From: an uncultured Actinomycetota bacterium
GTDB lineage: Bacteria; Actinomycetota; Actinomycetes; Mycobacteriales; Mycobacteriaceae
Length of the DNA stretch: 64,000 nt
Assembly (NCBI GenBank): GCA_963800125.1
Contig: CAWDAC010000030.1
Span: 98,736-162,735, forward strand
Direction: 5' to 3'
In this document: positions 15,217 to 24,833 of the stretch, one piece after another
Numbering within the stretch: the first letter of the stretch is position 1
How the letters are laid out: each line of letters begins with the position of its first letter
Made by a program: the position numbers and the translations under genes
The notes under the pieces: model-generated
Databases searched by the model: none
Told to the model about the DNA's origin: nothing
Seen by the model: the letters and a program-made list of their open reading frames with translations, nothing else

Positions 15217-15611
15217 CTAGCCCGGATCGCCGAGCGCCTTGGCCAGCTCGCCCAACCATGTCCGGTCGGCGGGGACCCACGGCAGGCGTTCCAGCTCGTC
15301 GGCCGTCACCCACCGCAACGCGCGGTGGTCGTTGGGATGCAGGGCGCCGCCAGTCTGGGTGACCCGGTAGGCGCGCAGCGTCGTCGTCTCGTCAGCGCGA
15401 CGTCCCCGCCCAGCCGCTCGCCGACCGCGACTTCAACGCCGAGTTCCTCGTGCAGTTCACGCGCCAGACCGGCGGCGTCGCTCTCCCCCGGCGCGACCTT
15501 GCCGCCCGGCAGCTCCCACAGCCCCGCCAATTCCGGCGGGCGGGCCACGCTGTGCCACCAGCAGCGCCAGCCCGCGATGAGCGCGCCCGCGACGACGATC
15601 TGGTTTGGCAT
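15217..15611 (-). pseudogene. mutT2: Nudix (deoxy)nucleoside triphosphate pyrophosphohydrolase, frameshifted
   Basis: LWELPGGKVAPGESDAAGLARELHEELG Nudix box; N- and C-terminal parts lie in other frames. Confidence 0.85.
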
Positions 15612-15908
15612 TGCGAGCGACGGTACCCGGGACTCGCTGGCTGCGACGGCGGCATGGTGACGTGGCTGAGCGTGGACGTGGATGCGGTGGGGGCGGAGAT
15701 GGTCGCGCAGACGACAGCGGAGCTGGACAAACGGTATCCAGATTCTGTTCCGACATGAGAGAGCGAGCAACGGACCAGTCTCATCCGACACGCCACTCGG
15801 CGGGACCCACGAACATTTCCAGAGTAAATTCTCTGAAGTTTGCTGAATTGCCGCAAATTGAGGTAGGCTCCGCGGAGTCTAGCGTCACCCCGAACCAAGA
15901 GGGAAGCC

Positions 15909-16964
15909 ATGCAACTCACACTTCGTCCATATGTCACTGCTGGCGTCGCCTTGGTCGGCGCGAGCGTGATCGTAGCCAGTACGGTGCAACCACCGCTACC
16001 AGATATCCGAGTATCCGCGGAGGCGGTGCAGCTCTCGGCGGCCAGCGTTCCCCCTCCCGCCGATGTCTACCCGTTTATTTTCAATAAGACCGTCGGCAAT
16101 GCAGGAGCCCTGGTGAACACGGCTTCAGCAGACCCGGCATCGGCGGCCCTGGGGCCGATTCTCGCCTTGGGGCGCATCCTCGAAAGCCAGCCCGGCAGTC
16201 TTCAAGACATCCTGGACGGACTCGGCATCTCTGCCGAGCAACTGTTCACAACGGTGCCGGCGCAACTCCTCGGCGCTGCGGGGAGCTTCGAAGCGGGCAG
16301 GATCAACTCGACGGTCAACATCCTGCAGAGTGTCCCGCTTGCGGTACTGAACCCCATTCTGGCGAAGAATCCCGCCCTCGCCGCCGTTCTGCTCGGTCTT
16401 GCTGGTCCGGCTATCAGCAGCGTCGGAGCGACCGTCGATGCGCTCCAACTCATAATTGACGCCTCGAATGCGGGCGACCCACAGGAAACTCTCAACGCCG
16501 TACTCGATGGACCCGCCGTGATCGCGGACGGCGTCTTCAATGGAGGGTACGGGCCCGACCTCGCCGCACATCCGAACACGGACCCCACGGTGCTGGCCGG
16601 GGGAATTCTCAGCGAGGGAACTGTCAGGGATGATGGCTCGGTTGTTCTACCCGGTCCGATTGCCACGCTTCTCCCCCCTGGTCAGCAGACGCTGCAGATT
16701 AAGCAGGCTGACAGCCAGGAAAAAGCGCCCGCTCTGGGAACCTGGAAACAGAGAGTCACCAAGCCCGTCATCGAATCCCTTGGCGTCCTGACCGGCGGCA
16801 AGAAGGTGTCGCTGGGCGCGAACTCCTCGAACACCAACCGCCCGGTCAGGGCCGCAGTTAACGGCCTTCGCGACCAGGTCAAGACGTCGATCAAGACCGT
16901 CGTGAACAACGTCCGGGACGCCACCGGGCTCGGCAGCAAAACCGAAGACGACGACGCCAAATGA
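15909..16964 (+). CDS. Putative secreted protein (RPYVTAGVALVGASVI N-terminal family)
   Basis: Signal-like N-terminus, VQLSAA, LDGPAVIADGVFNGGYGPDL, basic/acidic tail; intact 351 aa with GGGAAG upstream. Confidence 0.8.
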   Translation: MQLTLRPYVTAGVALVGASVIVASTVQPPLPDIRVSAEAVQLSAASVPPPADVYPFIFNKTVGNAGALVNTASADPASAALGPILALGRILESQPGSLQDILDGLGISAEQLFTTVPAQLLGAAGSFEAGRINSTVNILQSVPLAVLNPILAKNPALAAVLLGLAGPAISSVGATVDALQLIIDASNAGDPQETLNAVLDGPAVIADGVFNGGYGPDLAAHPNTDPTVLAGGILSEGTVRDDGSVVLPGPIATLLPPGQQTLQIKQADSQEKAPALGTWKQRVTKPVIESLGVLTGGKKVSLGANSSNTNRPVRAAVNGLRDQVKTSIKTVVNNVRDATGLGSKTEDDDAK

Positions 16965-16985
16965 CGACATCGGAGTCGTAACGAC

Positions 16986-17014
16986 GCGGCCCCCTCCCCA
17001 CCGGAGGGGGCCGC
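16986..17014 (+). terminator. GC-rich hairpin, probable intrinsic terminator
   Basis: Perfect 10-bp stem GCGGCCCCCT/AGGGGGCCGC, 22 nt after the stop at 16964. Confidence 0.65.
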
Positions 17015-17049
17015 TTCACGTCCGCCACTGATGTCCCTTCACCGAGCGG

Positions 17050-17092
17050 GCACAGCGGTACCTTGAGTGGTATGGCTGTGTTAACGGACGAA
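17050..17092 (+). repeat. attL-like direct repeat
   Basis: GCACAGCGGTA-CCTTGAGTGG-TATGGCTGTGTTAACGGACGAA; 38/43 identical to 24527-24569; encodes MAVLTDE, then diverges. Confidence 0.88.
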
Positions 17093-17183
17093 CACCCCCA
17101 CAGCGGCACCCCGTCTACCAGCGCAAACACCCCTGTTTCACCGTGTCCCGGTGAACCACAGGGCTACTAGTTACGATAACGGC

Positions 17184-18104
17184 GTGCCGACACCGCGCAT
17201 CCGACGCCCCTCACTCGACCTCGACACCCTCGCCCAGTCCTGGCACGTCGAACTCACCGCAGCCAACAAATCCCCGTCAACGCGCCGGGTCTACCAATCG
17301 TCGGTGCGGCGCTACCTGCAGTGGTGCGCCGAACACGACCACACACCGGCCATCGACCGGGGCCTCGTCGCCGCCTGGATAGCCGACATGCTCGCCGACG
17401 GCGCCAAACCCACCACCGCGGCCGCCCGCCTCGCCGGAGTCCGCCAGTTCAGCAAGTGGCTGGCCGCCGAAGGCGAAATCGGCGCCGATCCGCTGCTGCG
17501 CCTGACCGCCCCCAAAAGTGACGTCCCCATCACTCCGGTACTCACGGACGACGAGCTACGGCTGCTCATCAAAGCCTGCCAAGGTAAGGATCTTCGCGAC
17601 CGCCGCGACGAAGCGGCCATCCGGCTGATGTGCGAAACCGGGATGAGGGCAGGCGAATGCATCGCCCTACAAGTCGATGACGTCGACATGGTTCGCGGTC
17701 TGGCCACCATCGTGCGCGGTAAGGGCGGCCGCGGCAGGATCGTCCCATTCGGGCCGGCCACCGCCCGCGCCCTGGACCGCTACATCCGCGTCCGCCGAAC
17801 CCACCCCTACGCCGAACACAGCACCGCCCTGTGGCTCGGGCAGCGCGGCACCGGCGCACTCGGCTACCACGGGCTGCGGGTAGCCCTGCGTGAACGCGCA
17901 GAGTTGGCCGGTATCAACGACTTTCACCCCCACATACTTCGCCACACATTCTGCTCCCGCTGGCTCTCGGCGCGGGGCAGCGAGGGCGCGCTGATGGCGC
18001 TGGCCGGCTGGCGGGACCGGGCGATGCTGGACCGCTACGCCCGCGTCACCGCCGCCGACCGCGCCGTGGCAGAGGCCCGCAACCTCGGGCTGGGTGACTG
18101 GTGA
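17184..18104 (+). CDS. Tyrosine recombinase/integrase
   Basis: TGMRAGE (R), GKGG (K), HILRH (HxxR), LAGW, LDRY (Y). TACGAT -10 box 6 nt before GTG 17184 suggests a leaderless start. Confidence 0.95.
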   Translation: MPTPRIRRPSLDLDTLAQSWHVELTAANKSPSTRRVYQSSVRRYLQWCAEHDHTPAIDRGLVAAWIADMLADGAKPTTAAARLAGVRQFSKWLAAEGEIGADPLLRLTAPKSDVPITPVLTDDELRLLIKACQGKDLRDRRDEAAIRLMCETGMRAGECIALQVDDVDMVRGLATIVRGKGGRGRIVPFGPATARALDRYIRVRRTHPYAEHSTALWLGQRGTGALGYHGLRVALRERAELAGINDFHPHILRHTFCSRWLSARGSEGALMALAGWRDRAMLDRYARVTAADRAVAEARNLGLGDW

Positions 18105-18487
18105 ACCCGCAACGCGCCGACGCCATCCGCGACCGCATCCGAGAAACCCCGCAGCAGATCAGGGTGTTGTGCCCGCACGGGCATTTCATCGCCGACGTTT
18201 GGCTTGAGGTGCCCGACGGTGAGGGCGCTATTGCTATGTGGCCGGGTGGCCCTGATATTCAGCGTGCCTTCAACCGGCACGCGGGCTGGTATGGATTCTG
18301 GATGTCGATGGCGCGATCAAACGTGCGACGCCGTGAGCAGCACCTGAGTGATCCATCACCCGCCCAAAGATGGAAGTGCACGAACGCCCGATGCCGCTAC
18401 TCGGGCAGGTTCGACTACGCGTCGCTGGCGTTGGACCTCGCGGGCGCCGCGCTGGCAGGGCACCCCGAGCACCGACTCACCACATGA
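18101..18487 (+). CDS. Hypothetical protein, possible Zn-binding (CPHGH...CTNARC)
   Basis: GTGA overlap with the integrase stop; 128 aa. Confidence 0.65.
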   Translation: MNPQRADAIRDRIRETPQQIRVLCPHGHFIADVWLEVPDGEGAIAMWPGGPDIQRAFNRHAGWYGFWMSMARSNVRRREQHLSDPSPAQRWKCTNARCRYSGRFDYASLALDLAGAALAGHPEHRLTT

Positions 18488-18721
18488 ACACTGTGGTTCA
18501 GCCGACGGCCCGGCAGCGCCGACGCGAACGCCTACACCCGGTATCACACGACTCACACCGATACAGCAAACCTGGGCCACCACTCCCCTCGCAGGTCAGC
18601 GGCCACCCGATAGGCATAGCGTCTCGGATTCCGTACGGGTTTGGAAGTCGGTCCGGGGCGACCAACTGCACGCTAAATGGTCGGCCTTGAGTGCGAGTCG
18701 CTGGTGAGGAACGGTCGGCTT

Positions 18722-18877
18722 GTGTCGTGGACGGACCAGGTGCCGTGCGGTTGGTGTGGGACGTATGTGCCGGAGACGGAATCGGGCCGGGGCCGGCGGT
18801 GGTGTTCGGATGCCTGCCGGATGAAGAGCTACAGGGCGCACAAGCGAGCGCGGGGGGTCACCTACTGGCGTCTGTGA
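18722..18877 (+). CDS. Small Cys4 zinc-finger-like protein
   Basis: CGWCG...RRWCSDACRMKSYR pattern; GAGG upstream of GTG 18722. Confidence 0.6.
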   Translation: MSWTDQVPCGWCGTYVPETESGRGRRWCSDACRMKSYRAHKRARGVTYWRL

Positions 18878-19238
18878 CCACGGCGCGCATGGATAAGGCA
18901 GCATTCGAGCGCGTGGCATACGACGCCTGGTTGCGGTCTACGCGGGCAAGGACGGCCAGTTACCGCGTTGATTGAAATCGCCGGCAATCTACTCGAGTTC
19001 ACAGAGACTGCTGAGGCTGAGCAGTATCACGCGAGTGAGTCGATGCGAACGGCAGAGTGGGCTTCTGATACGCAATTGGCGTCAGCGGGTAGTCTTGACC
19101 TCGGCTGGCGTGGCGTAGAAGTACTCGCGCCTGAGATTCACTCTGTTGACGCGGGTACGGAGAACGGGGACCGCCCCAGAATGGCGGTGTCCCGGTGCGG
19201 GGGGGAATCCTGTGGGAACGTTCCCGCCGCGCGGGCTG

Positions 19239-20610
19239 TCACCACCAGCCGGTAGCAGCGCCGATCTGACGCCCCAGCTCGCTGGTCATGGTGCGCACGT
19301 ACGTGGTGGACAGGTGATGAGAGTCGTGATAGACCAGCACATTGCCTTCCACGGCGCGGCAAACGTCATTGCGGCACACCGCGTCGCTCATGTCGAGCGG
19401 CTTGAGTAGCGGGAACCGCGCGACGAAGTCCAGTGTCGGGTTGTGATCGGAGAGCACATCGGAGCGCTTGATCCCGCACGAGACGCCGTCGCCGCCGTCG
19501 GCCAGGCAGTCGGCCGGGGAGTACGGCCGCCCGTTCCGCACCAGCCACGGCGTATCGCGCATGGCGAGAATCGGAATGTTGTTGTCCGACAACGCTTGCC
19601 AGATCCCGATATAAGTAGCCGGCATGACATCGCCGGGCTTGATGTTCCACGGCCGGGTGGATGTGGTGAACACGTAATCCGGGTGGTCGGCGATCAGCTT
19701 GGCCATCACCCGCTGGTTCCAGTCGTGGCACTTCGGGTAGGGCCGGTTGTCGCCCATCACCTTCGGGACTTGCTCGGTGGTCAGCGGGCAACCCATCTTC
19801 AGGTAGGTCACCACCTTGAATCCATGCAGCTGGCCAAAAAGATCCAGCGCCGTGATCCAGTGCTCGGCGTGCGAGCCGCCGGCCAGCGCGATGGTGCGGG
19901 TAGCCGCCGTGTCGCCGTAGGTGCAGTTGATCACGTCGACGTTGGTGAAGTCGCTGATGCAGCCGTCAATGGTGGTTTCCGGCAGGTCCTTCTTGGCCTC
20001 CAGCACCGGCGGGCGCACCGGCAGCTGGGGCACCTTCACGTTGTTGAGCAGGGCACGCGCACCGAGATAGTCACGCGCCGACAGGCCGGCGAGCTCGTTG
20101 CCGTTCGCCCGCTGCAGGGTCACATGCTCACGCCAGGTGAACGACGTCACCGTCAGCGCGACACCGAGCAGCGCCGCCACCGAACCGAGTGCGATCGTCG
20201 GCCTGCGCAGCCGCACTCGCAGCGGGATCGCAACGATCGGACGGGTGGCGGCCGGGGCGCGGTAGCGCAGCGGGTTCTCGACATATCGCAGGGTCAGGTA
20301 GGCCAGCACGCCCGACAGCAGCAGCACGCCGGCACCCTCGACGAAATTGGCGTGCGGGTGCCCGGTGAAGGCCAGCCAGAAGATCAGCAGCGGCCAATGC
20401 CACAGATACAACGAGCACGCCATCGCCCCCAGCGTCATGAACGGCTTGGTGGCCAGCAGCCGGTTGCGGGCGGGCAACCTGCCGCCGTTGTGCGGGTCGG
20501 CCATCCGGTTGGCCGCGGACAGGATGAACAGCATCGCCGCGCCGACCGGCACCAGCGCCCACGGCCCGGGAAATTCCTTGACGCCGTCTACCTGGGTCGT
20601 CCCCCAGAAA
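19239..20610 (-). pseudogene. C-terminal part of an AT3 acyltransferase-SGNH protein (Rv1565c-like), N-terminus missing
   Basis: SLYLWHWPLLIFWL, AGGSHAEHW, YHDSHHLS and GRQIGAATGWW ending; joined in frame to the repeat protein. Confidence 0.85.
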
Positions 20611-21426
20611 GTGAGCGCACCGGCAAACGAGGTGACCATGTCCTGAACCGACGCGATGACGTCAGAAACCGGCCCGACCGCATCGGGGGCCGGCGCGACC
20701 GCATCGGGGGCCGGCGCGACCGCATCGGGGGCCGGCGCGACCGCATCGGGGGCCGGCGCGACCGCATTGGGGGCCGGCGCGACCGCATCGGGGGCCGGCG
20801 CGACCGCATCGGGGGCCGGCGCGACCGCATCGGGGGCCGGCGCGACCGCATCGGGGGCCGGCGCGACCGCATCGGGGGCCGGCGCGACCGCATCGGGGGC
20901 CGGCGCGACCGCATCGGGGGCCGGCGCGACCGCATCGGGGGCCGGCGCGACCGCATCGGGGGCCGGCGCGACCGCATCGGGGGCCGGCGCGACCGCATCG
21001 GGGGCCGGCGCGACCGCATCGGGGGCCGGCGCGACCGCATCGGGGGCCGGCGCGACCGCATCGGGGGCCGGCGCGACCGCCTTGGGGGCCGGCGCGACCG
21101 CCTTGGGGGCCGGCGCGACCGCCTTGGGGGCCGGCGCGACCGCCTTGGGGGCCGGCGCGACCGCCTTGGGGGCCGGCGCGACCGCCTTGGGGGCCGGCGC
21201 GACCGCCTTGGGGCCGGCGCGCCGCCTTGGCTGACGCGCCTTGGGGGCCGTGCCGTCTTTCTTCGGGTTTTTTTCCGCGCCGCGAATGCTGCTGGTTGGT
21301 GTCCGTGCTGTTCGCGGCGGAACCGCTGGAATCGGGATCGGCAACGGCGACCGCGCCCCCGCCGATCAGCAGGCCCGCTGTGAGCACGCAAACAGCTGCA
21401 GTGAAGCGGAAATGCGACGGAAACAC
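20611..21426 (-). pseudogene. N-terminal part of a secreted Pro/Ala-repeat protein (signal peptide + repeat), frameshift near 21270-21300
   Basis: VFPSHFRFTAAVCVLTAGLLIGGGAVAVADPDSSGSAA signal-like start; the repeat continues in a different frame. Confidence 0.65.
20674..21210. repeat. Tandem repeat, 21-bp unit, 25 full copies plus a partial copy
   Basis: Unit GGGGCCGGCGCGACCGCATCG with variants; minus strand encodes 7 x PKAVAPA, then PDAVAPA units with one PNAVAPA. Confidence 0.97.
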
Positions 21427-21831
21427 GATCTGCTCCCCACCAGTCACAGGACCGCTCGCAAACAGTCCACGGTTTGCCGCATTGTCGCATAGTCCGACCA
21501 TCGGGTATGCCGGAATCGCAAGCTAGGTATGCGCGGTCGACGGTTCAGCAGCAAACCATGCCTACGACGCCCGATGTCCGTTATGTCGATTAGCGCGGTC
21601 GAGCGCTTTGTCGACGGTAAGTGCGAATGACAACTTCCGCTTCGATGACAACCACGCCCGTGATGGTCGACCGCTGGAGGCACACGGCTGGCGGATGACC
21701 GGCACCCTCAAATGCTCAACGGATATGAGCATGATGAGACGTGGCCTGTTGAGACAGGACTCCCGCCGGGGCTGATGCTTCGGTAGGCGCTTTACTGCCT
21801 GCGCCCGTCACCCGCGGTGACGCGGCACGTA

Positions 21832-21928
21832 CTTTCTGAAGGCGTCCTTGACCTTCTCGCCAGCGTCCCTTGAGGTTGGACTTCGCCTGGTCGCCTCTGC
21901 CCTCAGCTTCGGTTCTCCTGTCGCCCAA
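21832..21928 (-). pseudogene. csbD: CsbD-family remnant
   Basis: TEAEGRGDQAKSNLK(+1)DAGEKVKDAFRK; 5' half absent. Confidence 0.65.
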
Positions 21929-22227
21929 GGTGGGCAGTCGGTAAGCCAGGCGTGTCGCCCACGGGGGCCGGGGGGTCTGCACCGGCGCCGCGCGGCATCC
22001 AGGCGATTGCGTGCTGCAACTGCACCGCCTCGCTCGCGCTGATCGGCCCATCAGTCCACACCGGCCAGCGCCGGCGGGCCGCCGCGGCGGCTGACCTGCA
22101 CGGGTGCCACTGTGGCTCACCCCGCGCCGAGAGCGGAACTATTAATCAGTTCTTCGATGGTTCGGTGTCAGAGCCGATTCCACACAGTCTGAGGCCGATG
22201 CGCGACCGTGGCTCCGTTGGGTACTGG

Positions 22228-22755
22228 TCACGTGGCAGACCAGAATGCTGGATCGTCGAAGCCGGGCTTGTACTTCACTTTGGTGATGGTAGTGCGCTTG
22301 GCTACCGGGAACAGCACCCATCCTCGCACGCATTCGCCCTCAACTATGGGCTCGTTGCTGAAGGGGTACTGGGGGGTGGGGAACCCCCTGTACGGCTTAT
22401 CGCTAGAAATGTACTGGCCGTTCTGGGCGTCCGACACTGACCAGTCGCTCCAGCCGACTGTCAACTGTCTGTAGACAGACCTTCTTGAGACATGTCCCGA
22501 TGTCGGCGCCTACCCAGTGGCCGCCCTGGTTGGCGTGGGTAGGCGCGGTGCGATGTTCTGGTCGACGGCGAAGACTGTGACATCAACTTCCAGTGCCCCT
22601 ACCATGTCGGTAAAGGTTCGTGTGGCGCCGAGTGGTTGTGGAACTGATGGGCCGGCGCTGGTGGTGGTCTCTGCTGAAGGCTCTCTGTTGTTGGAGCAAC
22701 CGGAGAGTATGAGGGAGATGGCGACGCCGAACGTGACGAGAAGTGCACGTATCAT
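22228..22755 (-). pseudogene. Putative lipoprotein, two frameshifts
   Basis: Lipobox LSGC after a hydrophobic stretch; continues GGHWVGADI in a second frame and VGWSDWSVSD...CVRGWVLF in a third. Confidence 0.65.
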
Positions 22756-23072
22756 GCGCAATCTTATCAAGAGTTTCCCGGCTCCTAACTCCATGTGGCG
22801 CAAGCAGCCCGCAGCGGCGGGCCAGTTAGTCAAGGCCCTGGACCTGTTGCGGAGCGGCCGGTGCGGCGGGGCCGGTTGGCCGCGGTGCGGACGATGGCAC
22901 CCGCTGGCAGCGACTCTGGTTGAAACAGCAAGATAACCGTCGGAGGGCCGAAAATCCTTCTCGGTGGGAGATAGGTCAGTACAAGCCCGGGAAGGGTGTA
23001 AAAGTCGCGCATTTCTCGGCGGCGACCTAATCGACGCTCCTCGCTCTCAAGCTCAGCCACCCGGCGGGATCG

Positions 23073-23231
23073 TCAACCCAACTGCGGGGTATACGGCGGC
23101 ACCCGCCGGCCGTCACGCACGACTGGGCACTGCTCGGTGCGGACCAGGCGGCGCACGTCGAGGACGCCGACGCCGAGCCGCGCCGCGGCCTGCGCGAAGG
23201 TGAGCAGTTCGCCGCTGCTGGTGGTGGTCAT
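23073..23231 (-). CDS. Excisionase-like (HTH_17/MerR-type) small protein, copy 1
   Basis: MTTTSSGELLTFAQAAARLGVGVLDVRRLVRTEQCPVVRDGRRV.., 52 aa. Confidence 0.65.
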   Translation of the reverse strand: MTTTSSGELLTFAQAAARLGVGVLDVRRLVRTEQCPVVRDGRRVPPYTPQLG

Positions 23232-23255
23232 GGTGGTTGTTTACCTTCGATGCCA

Positions 23256-23282
23256 TGGGTAGTTACTTCTAGTGACCACCCA
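23256..23282. promoter_or_regulatory. 11-5-11 palindrome, copy 1
   Basis: TGGGTAGTTAC-TTCTA-GTGACCACCCA upstream of xis-like copy 1. Confidence 0.65.
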
Positions 23283-23350
23283 GGCAGCTGGTGACACCCG
23301 GGACGGGGCGCACCGCCTGTTTACACGCGGCGCTGCACCAGATGATCTGG

Positions 23351-23707
23351 TTACGCCGCCGGTAGATCGGTTCGCGGCGGCGTGCCGTGCTGATTCTCTT
23401 CACCGGGCGGAAGACGCCGGCGGTTGGATCGCGCTCGCGATGTCCTGCCGCCAGTTCGTCTGACGCCTTGGACGGCCGCGACGGTGATAGCCACGACGGA
23501 AAGCATGTCGGATACCGTTATTCCGTGGCCATGGCTCAGAGGCATAAGAGTATGTCCCTCGAGCGGCCCATTGGTAACGGGCCAGATAAAGGCGAATAGA
23601 ATCACCGAAAGAATTGAAGCCCGATTCGGTTTTGCTGCACACCACGCAAGTGATGAAAATAGAGCGTTCATTGCCGCGATGCTGTAGAACAACTGCGGCT
23701 CGTCCAT
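23351..23707 (-). CDS. Small membrane protein
   Basis: Three hydrophobic segments; NGPLEGHTLMPLSHGHGITVSDMLS; start placed at ATG 23707. Confidence 0.6.
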   Translation of the reverse strand: MDEPQLFYSIAAMNALFSSLAWCAAKPNRASILSVILFAFIWPVTNGPLEGHTLMPLSHGHGITVSDMLSVVAITVAAVQGVRRTGGRTSRARSNRRRLPPGEENQHGTPPRTDLPAA

Positions 23708-23834
23708 GTATGTGCTCCTAACCCCCATTCGGCGAAGTCGGGTTCCCCCTCTGCCCCGCGTGCGTTCGTCGCGACCAGCTTCCCAGGGTATTCGACGCGA
23801 CCAAGCAAGGAGCAACGCGCGTTCACGGCGTGAA

Positions 23835-23957
23835 CTAGTCCAGAACGATCGGGCACTGCTCGGTGCGGACCATGCGCCGTATGTCGAGCACGCCGAGGTC
23901 GAGGCGCTGCGCCGCCTGGCTGTAGGTCAACAGTTCGCCGCTGCTGGTGGTGGTCAT
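23835..23957 (-). pseudogene. Excisionase-like small protein, copy 2 (truncated at 40 aa)
   Basis: MTTTSSGELLTYSQAAQRLDLGVLDIRRMVRTEQCPIVLD*; paralogous to 23073-23231. Confidence 0.6.
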
Positions 23958-23981
23958 GGTGGTGGTTTGCCTTCGATGCCA

Positions 23982-24008
23982 TAGGTAGTTACTCCTAGTG
24001 ACTACCTA
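23982..24008. promoter_or_regulatory. 11-5-11 palindrome, copy 2
   Basis: TAGGTAGTTAC-TCCTA-GTGACTACCTA upstream of xis-like copy 2. Confidence 0.7.
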
Positions 24009-24160
24009 GGCAGCTGGTCACACCGGGCAGGACCAGCGGCCCAACGAGGCCGGCGTGTGAGAGCACTCGGGATCGGCCCATACGGATTCACACCGGGGAC
24101 ACCCGTTTGATCGCTTACAGCAGCACGGTGACGGCAGTAATCGCTATGCCCGTCAGAGTT

Positions 24161-24430
24161 TCACCTGCGGGCCAGCTTCCGGGTCCGCTCGATGTCGTGC
24201 TGCCACTGCTGGGCCACCCGGTAGACCGCTGAGGCCGACGTCTGCCGCGCGGCCACACAGAGGCCGCCACAGCGGCGGCAGTCGACCGGGTGTGCCTGCA
24301 GCGCGTCGACCTGTGCTCTGATCCAAATGCGAGTTATCGACTGGCCGGCCTCGTCGGCGATTTGGAATAGTCGTAGCGCCACGATTTCGCCGCTGGCCTC
24401 GCGGTCGGCTGGATTGGCGGGGCGGCCCAC
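24161..24430 (-). CDS. Hypothetical element protein with CxxCxxxC
   Basis: 89-aa ORF next to attR containing DCRRCGGLC. Confidence 0.4.
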   Translation of the reverse strand: MGRPANPADREASGEIVALRLFQIADEAGQSITRIWIRAQVDALQAHPVDCRRCGGLCVAARQTSASAVYRVAQQWQHDIERTRKLARR

Positions 24431-24526
24431 GCCGATAAGTGTTCCACCGCGTCGGCGCGGACACCGCGCTACTTACGGATAACGTAGACCACAGCGCAAC
24501 CGCAGGTTCTAGGGATTTACCGGCAA

Positions 24527-24569
24527 GCACAGCGGTATCTTAAGGATTATGGCTGTGTTAACGGACGAA
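24527..24569 (+). repeat. attR-like direct repeat including the phhB start
   Basis: GCACAGCGGTA-TCTTAAGGAT-TATGGCTGTGTTAACGGACGAA. Confidence 0.88.
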
Positions 24570-24833
24570 GAAGTCGACGCCGCACTGCCCGACCTGAACG
24601 GCTGGGAGCGCAGCGAGGGAGTTCTACGCCGATCGATCAAGTTTCCCGCCTTCCTCGACGGTATCGACGCCGTGCGCCGCGTTGCCGAACGCGCCGAGGA
24701 GAAGGACCATCATCCCGACATCGATATCCGCTGGCGGACAGTGACTTTCGCACTGGTCACGCATTCCGCGGGCGGGATCACCCAGAACGATCTGGCGATG
24801 GCTCGGGAGATAAACCAGATCGTCGACCGGTAG
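24549..24833 (+). CDS. phhB: Pterin-4-alpha-carbinolamine dehydratase (Rv1159A-like)
   Basis: [25 protein letters not shown] signature. Confidence 0.93.

Follow-up and report, generated by a model that had tools for sequence, protein, structure and literature searches.

Prophage attachment sites (attB) at the starts of protein-coding genes are known from Mycobacterium abscessus, where attB-12 and attB-13 overlap the start codons of host genes and host transcription comes from the prophage (PMC8092301, Dedrick et al. 2021). Another site of this species, attB-29, also lies at a translation start, and several sites have been validated with integration vectors (PMC10654092). For the groups of M. 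marinum-ulcerans, M. avium-intracellulare and M. fortuitum-smegmatis, a survey reported tRNA-Lys and tmRNA as the only prophage sites, and three example tyrosine-integrase phage-inducible chromosomal islands (PICIs) integrate at tRNA genes (PMC10654092). Here we analyze a 64-kb stretch of DNA (the window, whose numbering is used throughout) from contig C30 of a Mycobacterium-type genome (G000; assembly of 6.2 Mb in 58 contigs). The window carries an integrative element at the start of phhB, the gene for pterin-4a-carbinolamine dehydratase. With a probability of roughly 0.7, we take this to be a site-specific element, now a decayed islet, that has a tandem history and retains an intact integrase of a clade directed to the phhB start.

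The element resembles the residents of attB-12 and attB-13, and of attB-29, in having a tyrosine integrase, a non-tRNA attB, a core over a host translation start, and a need for host gene transcription to originate in the integrated DNA. It differs in its target, which in M. abscessus is MAB_3824 or MAB_3947, and in being a 7.5-kb islet without phage genes rather than a full prophage. The attB-12 and attB-13 prophages show integration-dependent immunity, with the phage attachment site (attP) inside the repressor gene, whereas no open reading frame (ORF) with repressor features crosses either repeat of the window element; what comes after the core is the promoter region of the integrase. The initial annotation held that no element using this site had been described. 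In the literature we found nothing relevant on an attB at phhB, Rv1159A or pterin dehydratase, and no paper describing the phhB-linked elements reported below, but attB-12 and attB-13, as well as attB-29, are precedents for attB sites at start codons (PMC8092301, PMC10654092). The kind of event is already known, and the phhB start is a new attachment site of that kind.

Two further groups invite comparison. Candidate mycobacterial PICI-type satellites are recognized by an integrase plus a major capsid gene (PMC10654092), and relatives of ~10 kb fit this description, among them elements of M. europaeum at phhB and of M. abscessus at the sigA 3′ end; the window element differs in lacking a capsid or other phage gene. 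XerC/XerD-dif systems and integrative mobile elements exploiting Xer (IMEX) share the recombinase fold and size, and the absence of an arm-binding N-terminal domain. Here, in contrast, the element encodes its own recombinase, and the target is a gene start rather than dif.

Direct repeats at the two ends of the element

Direct repeats that contain the target core lie at both ends of the element (Table 1). A repeat search of the window returned two copies of 43 nt with 88% identity (38/43), 7,477 nt apart. The identical 22-mer within them, TATGGCTGTGTTAACGGACGAA, spans the phhB ATG; it occurs exactly twice in the window, compared to 0 in 100 shuffles, and just twice in the whole 6.2-Mb assembly. 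Every sequence feature that the initial annotation described in these repeats is borne out. The five mismatches (17061, 17065 and 17068–17070) occupy a 10-nt stretch, and each copy has a TANNNT box (TACCTT at 17059–17064 on the left, TATCTT on the right) that ends 7 nt before an ATG (17072 and 24549). AAGGA is present in the right copy alone; with its end 2 nt from the ATG, it lies too near to function as a Shine-Dalgarno sequence or ribosome-binding site. Both copies contain the same inverted arms, CACAGCGGTA and TATGGCTGTG, which are 8/10 complementary, and all five mismatches fall between them. At the right edge, similarity breaks off sharply after CGAA; beyond the left edge, a weaker similarity continues for ~12 nt more (TTCACCGAGCGG versus TTTACCG-GCAA, ~9/13). 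ARAGORN and Rfam detected no tRNA, tmRNA or other RNA gene at the element ends.

An integrase clade linked to the phhB start

The integrase gene (int) starts ~90 nt past the left repeat. Its product combines the catalytic domain with an N-terminal SAM-like core-binding domain, which places it in the tyrosine recombinase/phage integrase family, and it matches the XerD structure 1a0p (E = 6.6e-19). The catalytic R, K, HxxR, W and Y, read from the sequence, are found in TGMRAGE, GKGGRGR, HILRHTF, GWRD and DRYARV. A conserved promoter-like block emerged when the upstream regions of 20 homologous int genes were compared. With its domains, catalytic residues and own family-type promoter in place, the integrase is intact.

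Within a set of 121 genomes of the genus, the best integrase homologue (G072, 66% identity) is encoded ~110 nt from the phhB start, and homologues of ≤61% identity are located elsewhere. A wider search, in a collection of 5.8 billion proteins, gave nearest relatives of 62–72% identity. Nine of these were looked up (15 contigs; Table 1), and all nine have the same order: a GT87 gene, phhB convergent with it, and then int, divergent from phhB and directly beside its start. In a tree, the window and phhB-linked integrases split from those linked to sigA, efp and ribE with support of 100/99, and the rows nearest the window integrase, at 66–71% identity, are all phhB-linked. A scan of genome contigs with the window integrase returned only sigA-linked relatives from Nocardia and Prescottella.

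Both ends (attL and attR) are clean in three relatives, with a common core, ATGGCTGTGTT(A)(TC), that corresponds to the first 11–14 bases of phhB. In G072 the ends read mutT2-native promoter-ATGGCTGTGTTATC|phage.. and ..int-arm-ATGGCTGTGTTATC|GGACGAA, for a core of 14 bp; this element is a prophage with candidate terminase- and portal-sized and HNH-like ORFs (judged by eye from ORF size and sequence). The M. europaeum element (9.7 kb) has int, a capsid gene and the 12-bp core ATGGCTGTGTTA, and that of JGI contig L124 (7.2 kb) has the 11-bp core ATGGCTGTGTT. Specificity for the phhB start is well supported as a property of this integrase clade, in line with the earlier proposal that integration occurs at the translation start of a protein gene rather than at a tRNA.

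These phhB-linked elements (M. europaeum, SMC-2, HUMS_1102779, G072 and metagenome contigs) share with the window element the integrase clade, the target, the flanks (pimE/phhB and mutT2) and the CACAG[CT]G repeats of the far arm, and several are similarly small (7–10 kb). They differ in having a core of 11–14 bp, versus 22 identical bp within a 43-bp repeat, and many carry capsid, terminase or portal genes.

The position of the core bears on another view of the repeats, in which the recombination site is the CACAGCGGTA/TATGGCTGTG pair with an 11-nt spacer. Non-identical spacers would be tolerated, as are the coupling sequences of Tn916 and CTnDOT, and the mismatches would be an integration footprint. 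The confinement of 5/5 mismatches between arms that are themselves identical in both copies is consistent with such a scheme, as is a weak left-arm equivalent, GCGACGGTA, in the native site. Tyrosine recombinases have spacers of 6–8 bp, and 11 nt would be unusual for them. Moreover, the crossover in the three relatives maps within ATGGCTGTGTT, not upstream, and the DNA to the left of the left repeat is non-native, so that the left copy is no simple attB/attP hybrid. We regard this scheme as very unlikely.

More distant integrase relatives occupy other sites. Sister clades are found at the sigA 3′ end (L043–L046, L107–L110, L126 and L128), the efp 5′ end (L052, L054, L067 and L068) and the ribE 3′ end (L053, L055 and L056), in Mycobacterium, Mycobacteroides, Nocardia and Prescottella. 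A block upstream of int, TTGCACAGCG-N8-9-TAAGATAAC-N4-6-ATG, is common to all of them and looks like a leaderless int promoter. Among phages, the closest integrases come from Streptomyces phage Kromp, at 52% identity, and from Cluster E mycobacteriophages such as SirDuracell and Toto, at 41.6%; these are also short and XerD-like, and the relationship is distant. In 2011 it was not possible to identify an attB for Cluster E (PMC3029335), which would be consistent with a non-tRNA site.

The native mutT2-phhB junction

phhB was detected in 116 of the 121 genomes, and we compared the DNA upstream of it in the 29 best-matching relatives. In 18 of them, a GGTATACC-type palindrome lies directly upstream of the phhB ATG, and in most of these 18 the divergent mutT2 start codon is only ~33 nt from phhB. 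The native consensus is CAT-N7-GACGGTATACCGTCG-N4-6-ATG, the block then reading GACGGTATACCGTCG-N4-6-ATGGCTGTGTTA. Within the GACGGTATACCGTCG block, TACCGT constitutes a TANNNT box ending 6–7 nt before the phhB ATG. This arrangement probably reflects a leaderless mycobacterial gene whose promoter region is shared with the divergent mutT2.

The initial annotation had suggested defining attB from relatives without the insert. In relatives that lack the integrase, the site is present once and the mutT2-phhB junction is empty: the native junction with a single core is seen in 18/29, and copies of the phhB start are single within the 3–20 kb of upstream sequence looked at. The closest species, G044 (PhhB 90% identical), aligns on both sides of the insert: on the left its homology covers mutT2 and the intergenic sequence as far as 15625, and on the right it starts anew at 24549. 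This comparison of empty and occupied sites is made across species only. Relative to G044, ~8.9 kb of foreign DNA (15626–24548) stands in place of 13 nt of native promoter.

In the other 11 relatives, 0.06–5.4 kb of unrelated, lineage-specific DNA separates mutT2 from phhB. Genes in these gaps include DivIVA-like, small secreted protein, LuxR and WD40 genes, with no integrase or second core among them. In an intergenic region that varies naturally, the repeats might be the outcome of a local duplication or rearrangement, and the integrase might be a passenger, or the relic of another event; these 11 gaps are what speaks for that possibility. Several observations argue the other way. The integrase clade is strictly linked to the site (9/9), the right end of the repeat is exactly the expected end of the att core, int is adjacent to one repeat, and CACAGCG arm motifs occur at both ends, which hold 5 of the 11 forward copies in the window. 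We consider local duplication the least probable of the explanations weighed here.

The idea that all 11 non-native gaps are element relics did not hold, as only G072 (intact) and G134 (relic) are clear, with G106 and G008 borderline and the others filled by ordinary lineage-specific genes. In G134 (L090) the relic arm, TATCGCAGGCAGAGCC..ACAGGAGTAAAGTTGCGGT-ATG, lies upstream of phhB at the edge of a 5.4-kb insert that includes an ORF of ~970 aa, LuxR-like by eye. This integrase-side arm scores 23, compared to a shuffle maximum of 14, and the integrase is absent; we interpret the relic as independent decay of such an element at phhB. These cases hint, weakly, that the mutT2-phhB gap is a 'hot spot'. 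An integrase that seemed to lie beside phhB in G048 was discarded, as the coordinates agree but the contigs are different, and the G048 site is empty. In G117 (L097), whose mutT2-phhB spacer measures 64 nt, the phhB start recurs in inverted form, CACAGCCAC, 14 nt upstream of the real ATGGCTGTG. This inverted copy is similar to the repeat arm CACAGCGGTA in the window and may be the footprint of a past element.

In the part of the window studied, GC content is 62–70%. phhB is followed on the right by the convergent GT87 gene pimE, and both pimE and typA, neighbors of the mutT2/phhB region, look intact. Three-frame translation of mutT2 indicates three frame changes, a compensated pair near codons 15–25 and another near codon 75. 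The broken mutT2 is either a pseudogene or the product of assembly indel errors. Because the assembly may hold such errors, pseudogene calls in this region are provisional.

The left repeat and a proposed tandem history

The left repeat does not consist of element DNA attached to the native promoter. Its upstream half is far-arm-like: of the 22 nt that precede the left ATG, 17 agree with the element's far arm, and apart from CGGTA..CC.T these nt show no match to the native block; another 1.4 kb of foreign DNA lies between the repeat and mutT2. Because this half matches the far arm rather than the native promoter, the left repeat looks like an attP-type junction (far-arm-like sequence, core, integrase arm) between stacked siblings, the left of which has been mostly deleted. 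Stacking is also suggested by the duplication of the excisionase-like block (190-nt direct repeat, 23112–23301 and 23838–24027, 84% identity) and by ORF351, for which 120 genomes contain no orthologue. In the proposed sequence of events, the most parsimonious one, a related element A would have integrated first; element B would then have recombined with attR of A to give a tandem array; and most of A, including its integrase, would later have been deleted, leaving 15626–17049.

A single integration is an alternative. It would involve either one element of ~8.9 kb (15626–24548) or a 7.5-kb element followed by an unrelated insertion of ORF351, with the upstream half of the left repeat being diverged native or target DNA. 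Consistent with this, just one integrase is present, and no second integrase or remnant was found elsewhere in the region, including near the right end, where one would have restored the usual polarity, even at E = 10. In addition, CGGTA occurs both in the native promoter and in the repeats, about equally far from the ATG, and the left breakpoint falls exactly after CGGTA. Such an event should, however, leave the native promoter beside one core, as in G072, M. europaeum and L124. Here the DNA upstream of the left ATG is far-arm-like, and the similarity runs on into non-native flanking DNA. We therefore view a single integration as unlikely.

Several points weigh against a site-specific element with a tandem history. 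The polarity of the element is opposite to that of 9/9 relatives, and there is no second example of this arrangement. The protein collections searched hold no integrase relative above 72% identity, and an exact-protein look-up of the window PhhB in other assemblies gave no match. What remains of element A lacks any recognizable element gene. The left breakpoint (..GCGACGGTA|C) has CGGTA in common with the repeats, which could indicate a different crossover point. Finally, cargo genes have pseudogene-like lesions, so the element may no longer be mobile.

ORF351 (15909–16964) has no Pfam match, and its best match in 120 genomes of the genus, at 44% identity, is at another locus. It belongs to a multi-copy mycobacterial family without a Pfam model (N-terminus M..RPYVTAGVALVGA..), paralogues of which often lie 6–20 kb from phhB in relatives. 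The GC-rich hairpin that follows it, GCGGCCCCCTCC..GGAGGGGGCCGC, has a 92% identical copy elsewhere in the assembly (G000:C43:97476-97513) and may be a dispersed terminator or a repeat of the repetitive extragenic palindromic (REP) type. A supposed degenerate phhB 5′ fragment at 15654 (ATGGTGACG..) was rejected, its similarity, judged by eye, being no greater than chance.

Reversed polarity

In the usual polarity, int is next to and divergent from phhB, and the far end of the element lies at the native promoter and mutT2. In the window, int is beside the left repeat, on the mutT2 side, points in the same direction as phhB and is 7.4 kb from it, and the far arm abuts phhB. Relative to the integrase the arms are nevertheless conserved: in the window as well as in M. 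europaeum, L124 and G072, the far arm reads CACAGCG-N29-36-CACAG[CT]G-N10-16-core. The inverted part is the core itself, relative to the integrase and both arms. No palindrome that would allow either orientation was found in the 11-bp core. A palindromic overlap, GTTAAC, was considered as a cause of insertion either way and rejected, since the cores of relatives end before or inside GTTA and the L124 attP is without GTTAAC.

One tentative possibility, which we think doubtful, is that the clade inserts at the same 11–14-bp core in either polarity. The attP core of the window element would have been flipped, and its far arm would then have come to imitate the native leaderless promoter (GGTAYCTT, with TANNNT 7 nt before the ATG), in contrast to the Shine-Dalgarno leader of relatives. 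If this is true, a single clade has found two different solutions for keeping a disrupted housekeeping gene expressed.

Expression of phhB after integration

Integration cut phhB off from its native, probably leaderless promoter and put the far arm directly upstream of the ATG. The initial annotation had inferred that the element supplies the upstream region of phhB, and this is upheld by the alignment, in which G044 homology resumes only at the ATG. Because the DNA directly upstream is element-derived, the starting point of phhB expression has to be the junction or some place within the element. In all relatives, too, element-derived DNA is next to the phhB ATG; in most, AGGAGG lies ~11 nt upstream, compared to the TANNNT box in the window. 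The elements of relatives appear to convert phhB from a probably leaderless gene to a leadered one, expressed from the divergent int-phhB region.

In the window, phhB may be transcribed from the far arm, where TATCTT, 7 nt before the ATG, would be spaced as is the TACCGT box of the native site. Transcription may instead come from further inside the element. The match to this six-base motif makes a leaderless replacement promoter plausible. A generic sigma-70 promoter scan returned nothing at the phhB start.

Contents and decay of the element

Against Pfam and PHROGs, the only phage-type genes of the element are int and a weak excisionase-like helix-turn-helix (HTH) gene, so, for want of structural virion genes and of genes for packaging and lysis, it does not qualify as a prophage. 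The same searches found no capsid gene, so it is not of the PICI type, whereas capsid genes are present in relatives L116, L117, L122, L127 and L128. When the element DNA was compared with phages and plasmids, only int and the acyltransferase gene matched, the latter at 71% identity on the DNA level to acyltransferase genes carried by Mycolicibacterium plasmids.

Several genes appear damaged. The acyltransferase 3 (AT3) domain of the cargo gene lacks its first ~220 profile positions. A tandem array of ~33 near-identical 21-bp copies (20508–21305), encoding PAPDAVA/PAPKAVA heptads, is fused in frame to this AT3-SGNH gene. The excisionase-like gene has a truncated paralogue (23835–23961) in the second copy of the 190-nt direct repeat. 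We conclude that the element is an islet in decay, without phage genes, although its pseudogene-like lesions are provisional.

Table 1. Features of the mutT2-phhB region of the window, followed by the relatives whose phhB-linked integrases were looked up. GC3, GC content at third codon positions.
Feature	Position or contig	Strand	Remarks
mutT2 (NUDIX), native left neighbor of phhB	15232..15611	-	Reading frame broken; tblastn with G016 MutT2 gives two pieces in different frames
Native mutT2-phhB intergenic remnant, TGCGAGCGACGGTA	15612..15625	.	Homology to G044 ends after ..GCGACGGTA
Foreign segment A	15626..17049	+	ORF351 and terminator-like hairpin (16986-17014); far-arm-like end; absent from the mutT2-phhB junction of relatives
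Left 43-bp repeat	17050..17092	+	Far-arm-like half GCACAGCGGTACCTTGAGTGGT plus first 21 nt of phhB; reads as attP-type junction
Integrase-side arm	17093..17183	+	CACAGCG at 17099; conserved int promoter-like block ~17158-17183 (..CCACAGGGCTACTAGTTACGATAACGGC-GTG)
Tyrosine integrase, XerD-like, 306 aa	17184..18104	+	PF00589 E = 1.5e-28, PF02899 E = 2.5e-9; PHROG 1; GC3 0.81
ORF128	18101..18487	+	Overlaps int stop codon; homologue directly after int in efp-linked element L052 (G013), 32.5%, E = 5e-12, tblastn
Small zinc-ribbon-like ORF, 66 aa	18677..18877	+	GC3 0.82; weak matches to DUF2116 and PHROGs of unknown function
Cargo gene, AT3 acyltransferase C-terminal third plus SGNH	19239..21365	-	PF19040 E = 8e-23; PF01757 at profile positions 221-324 only
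Lipoprotein-like gene	22228..22833	-	Two same-frame ORFs split by a single stop (22510-22512); no family match
Excisionase-like HTH gene (MTTTSSGELLTF..)	23073..23231	-	GC3 0.88; HTH_17 E = 3.5e-4 and PHROG 66 E = 0.005, both weak
ORF89, unknown function	24161..24430	-	Divergent from phhB; GC3 0.77; no family match
Element far arm	24473..24548	+	CACAGCG at 24490 and 24528 (another at 24268); TATCTT 24536-24541
Right 43-bp repeat	24527..24569	+	Element far arm plus real phhB start; G044 homology resumes exactly at ATG 24549
phhB, pterin-4a-carbinolamine dehydratase	24549..24833	+	Intact, 94 aa; PF01329 (Pterin_4a) E = 1.3e-29
phhB-linked integrase P0002	L114, L115		ENA metagenome assembly
phhB-linked integrase P0012	L116		Mycobacterium sp. 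SMC-2
phhB-linked integrase P0014	L117, L118		M. europaeum
phhB-linked integrase P0003	L119, L120		NCBI assemblies
phhB-linked integrase P0006	L121		ENA metagenome assembly
phhB-linked integrase P0017	L122		HUMS_1102779
phhB-linked integrase P0007	L123-L125		JGI metagenomes
phhB-linked integrase P0037	L127		Logan assembly
phhB-linked integrase P0018	L071		G072

Implications

Small XerD-like integrases of one clade, found in slow-growing mycobacteria, use a new attachment site, the start of phhB (its first 11–14 nt, with pimE/phhB to one side and mutT2 to the other). Because this site is short, conserved in the genus and located in a non-tRNA gene, another integration-proficient vector could be developed from the integrase and attP. 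What merits specialist attention is the site shared across the clade and the flip in polarity, the reversed polarity being a small but real puzzle about what sets orientation in simple recombinases. The sister clades at the sigA 3′, efp 5′ and ribE 3′ ends suggest that docking at the boundaries of conserved genes, with replacement expression signals, is a family-wide habit.

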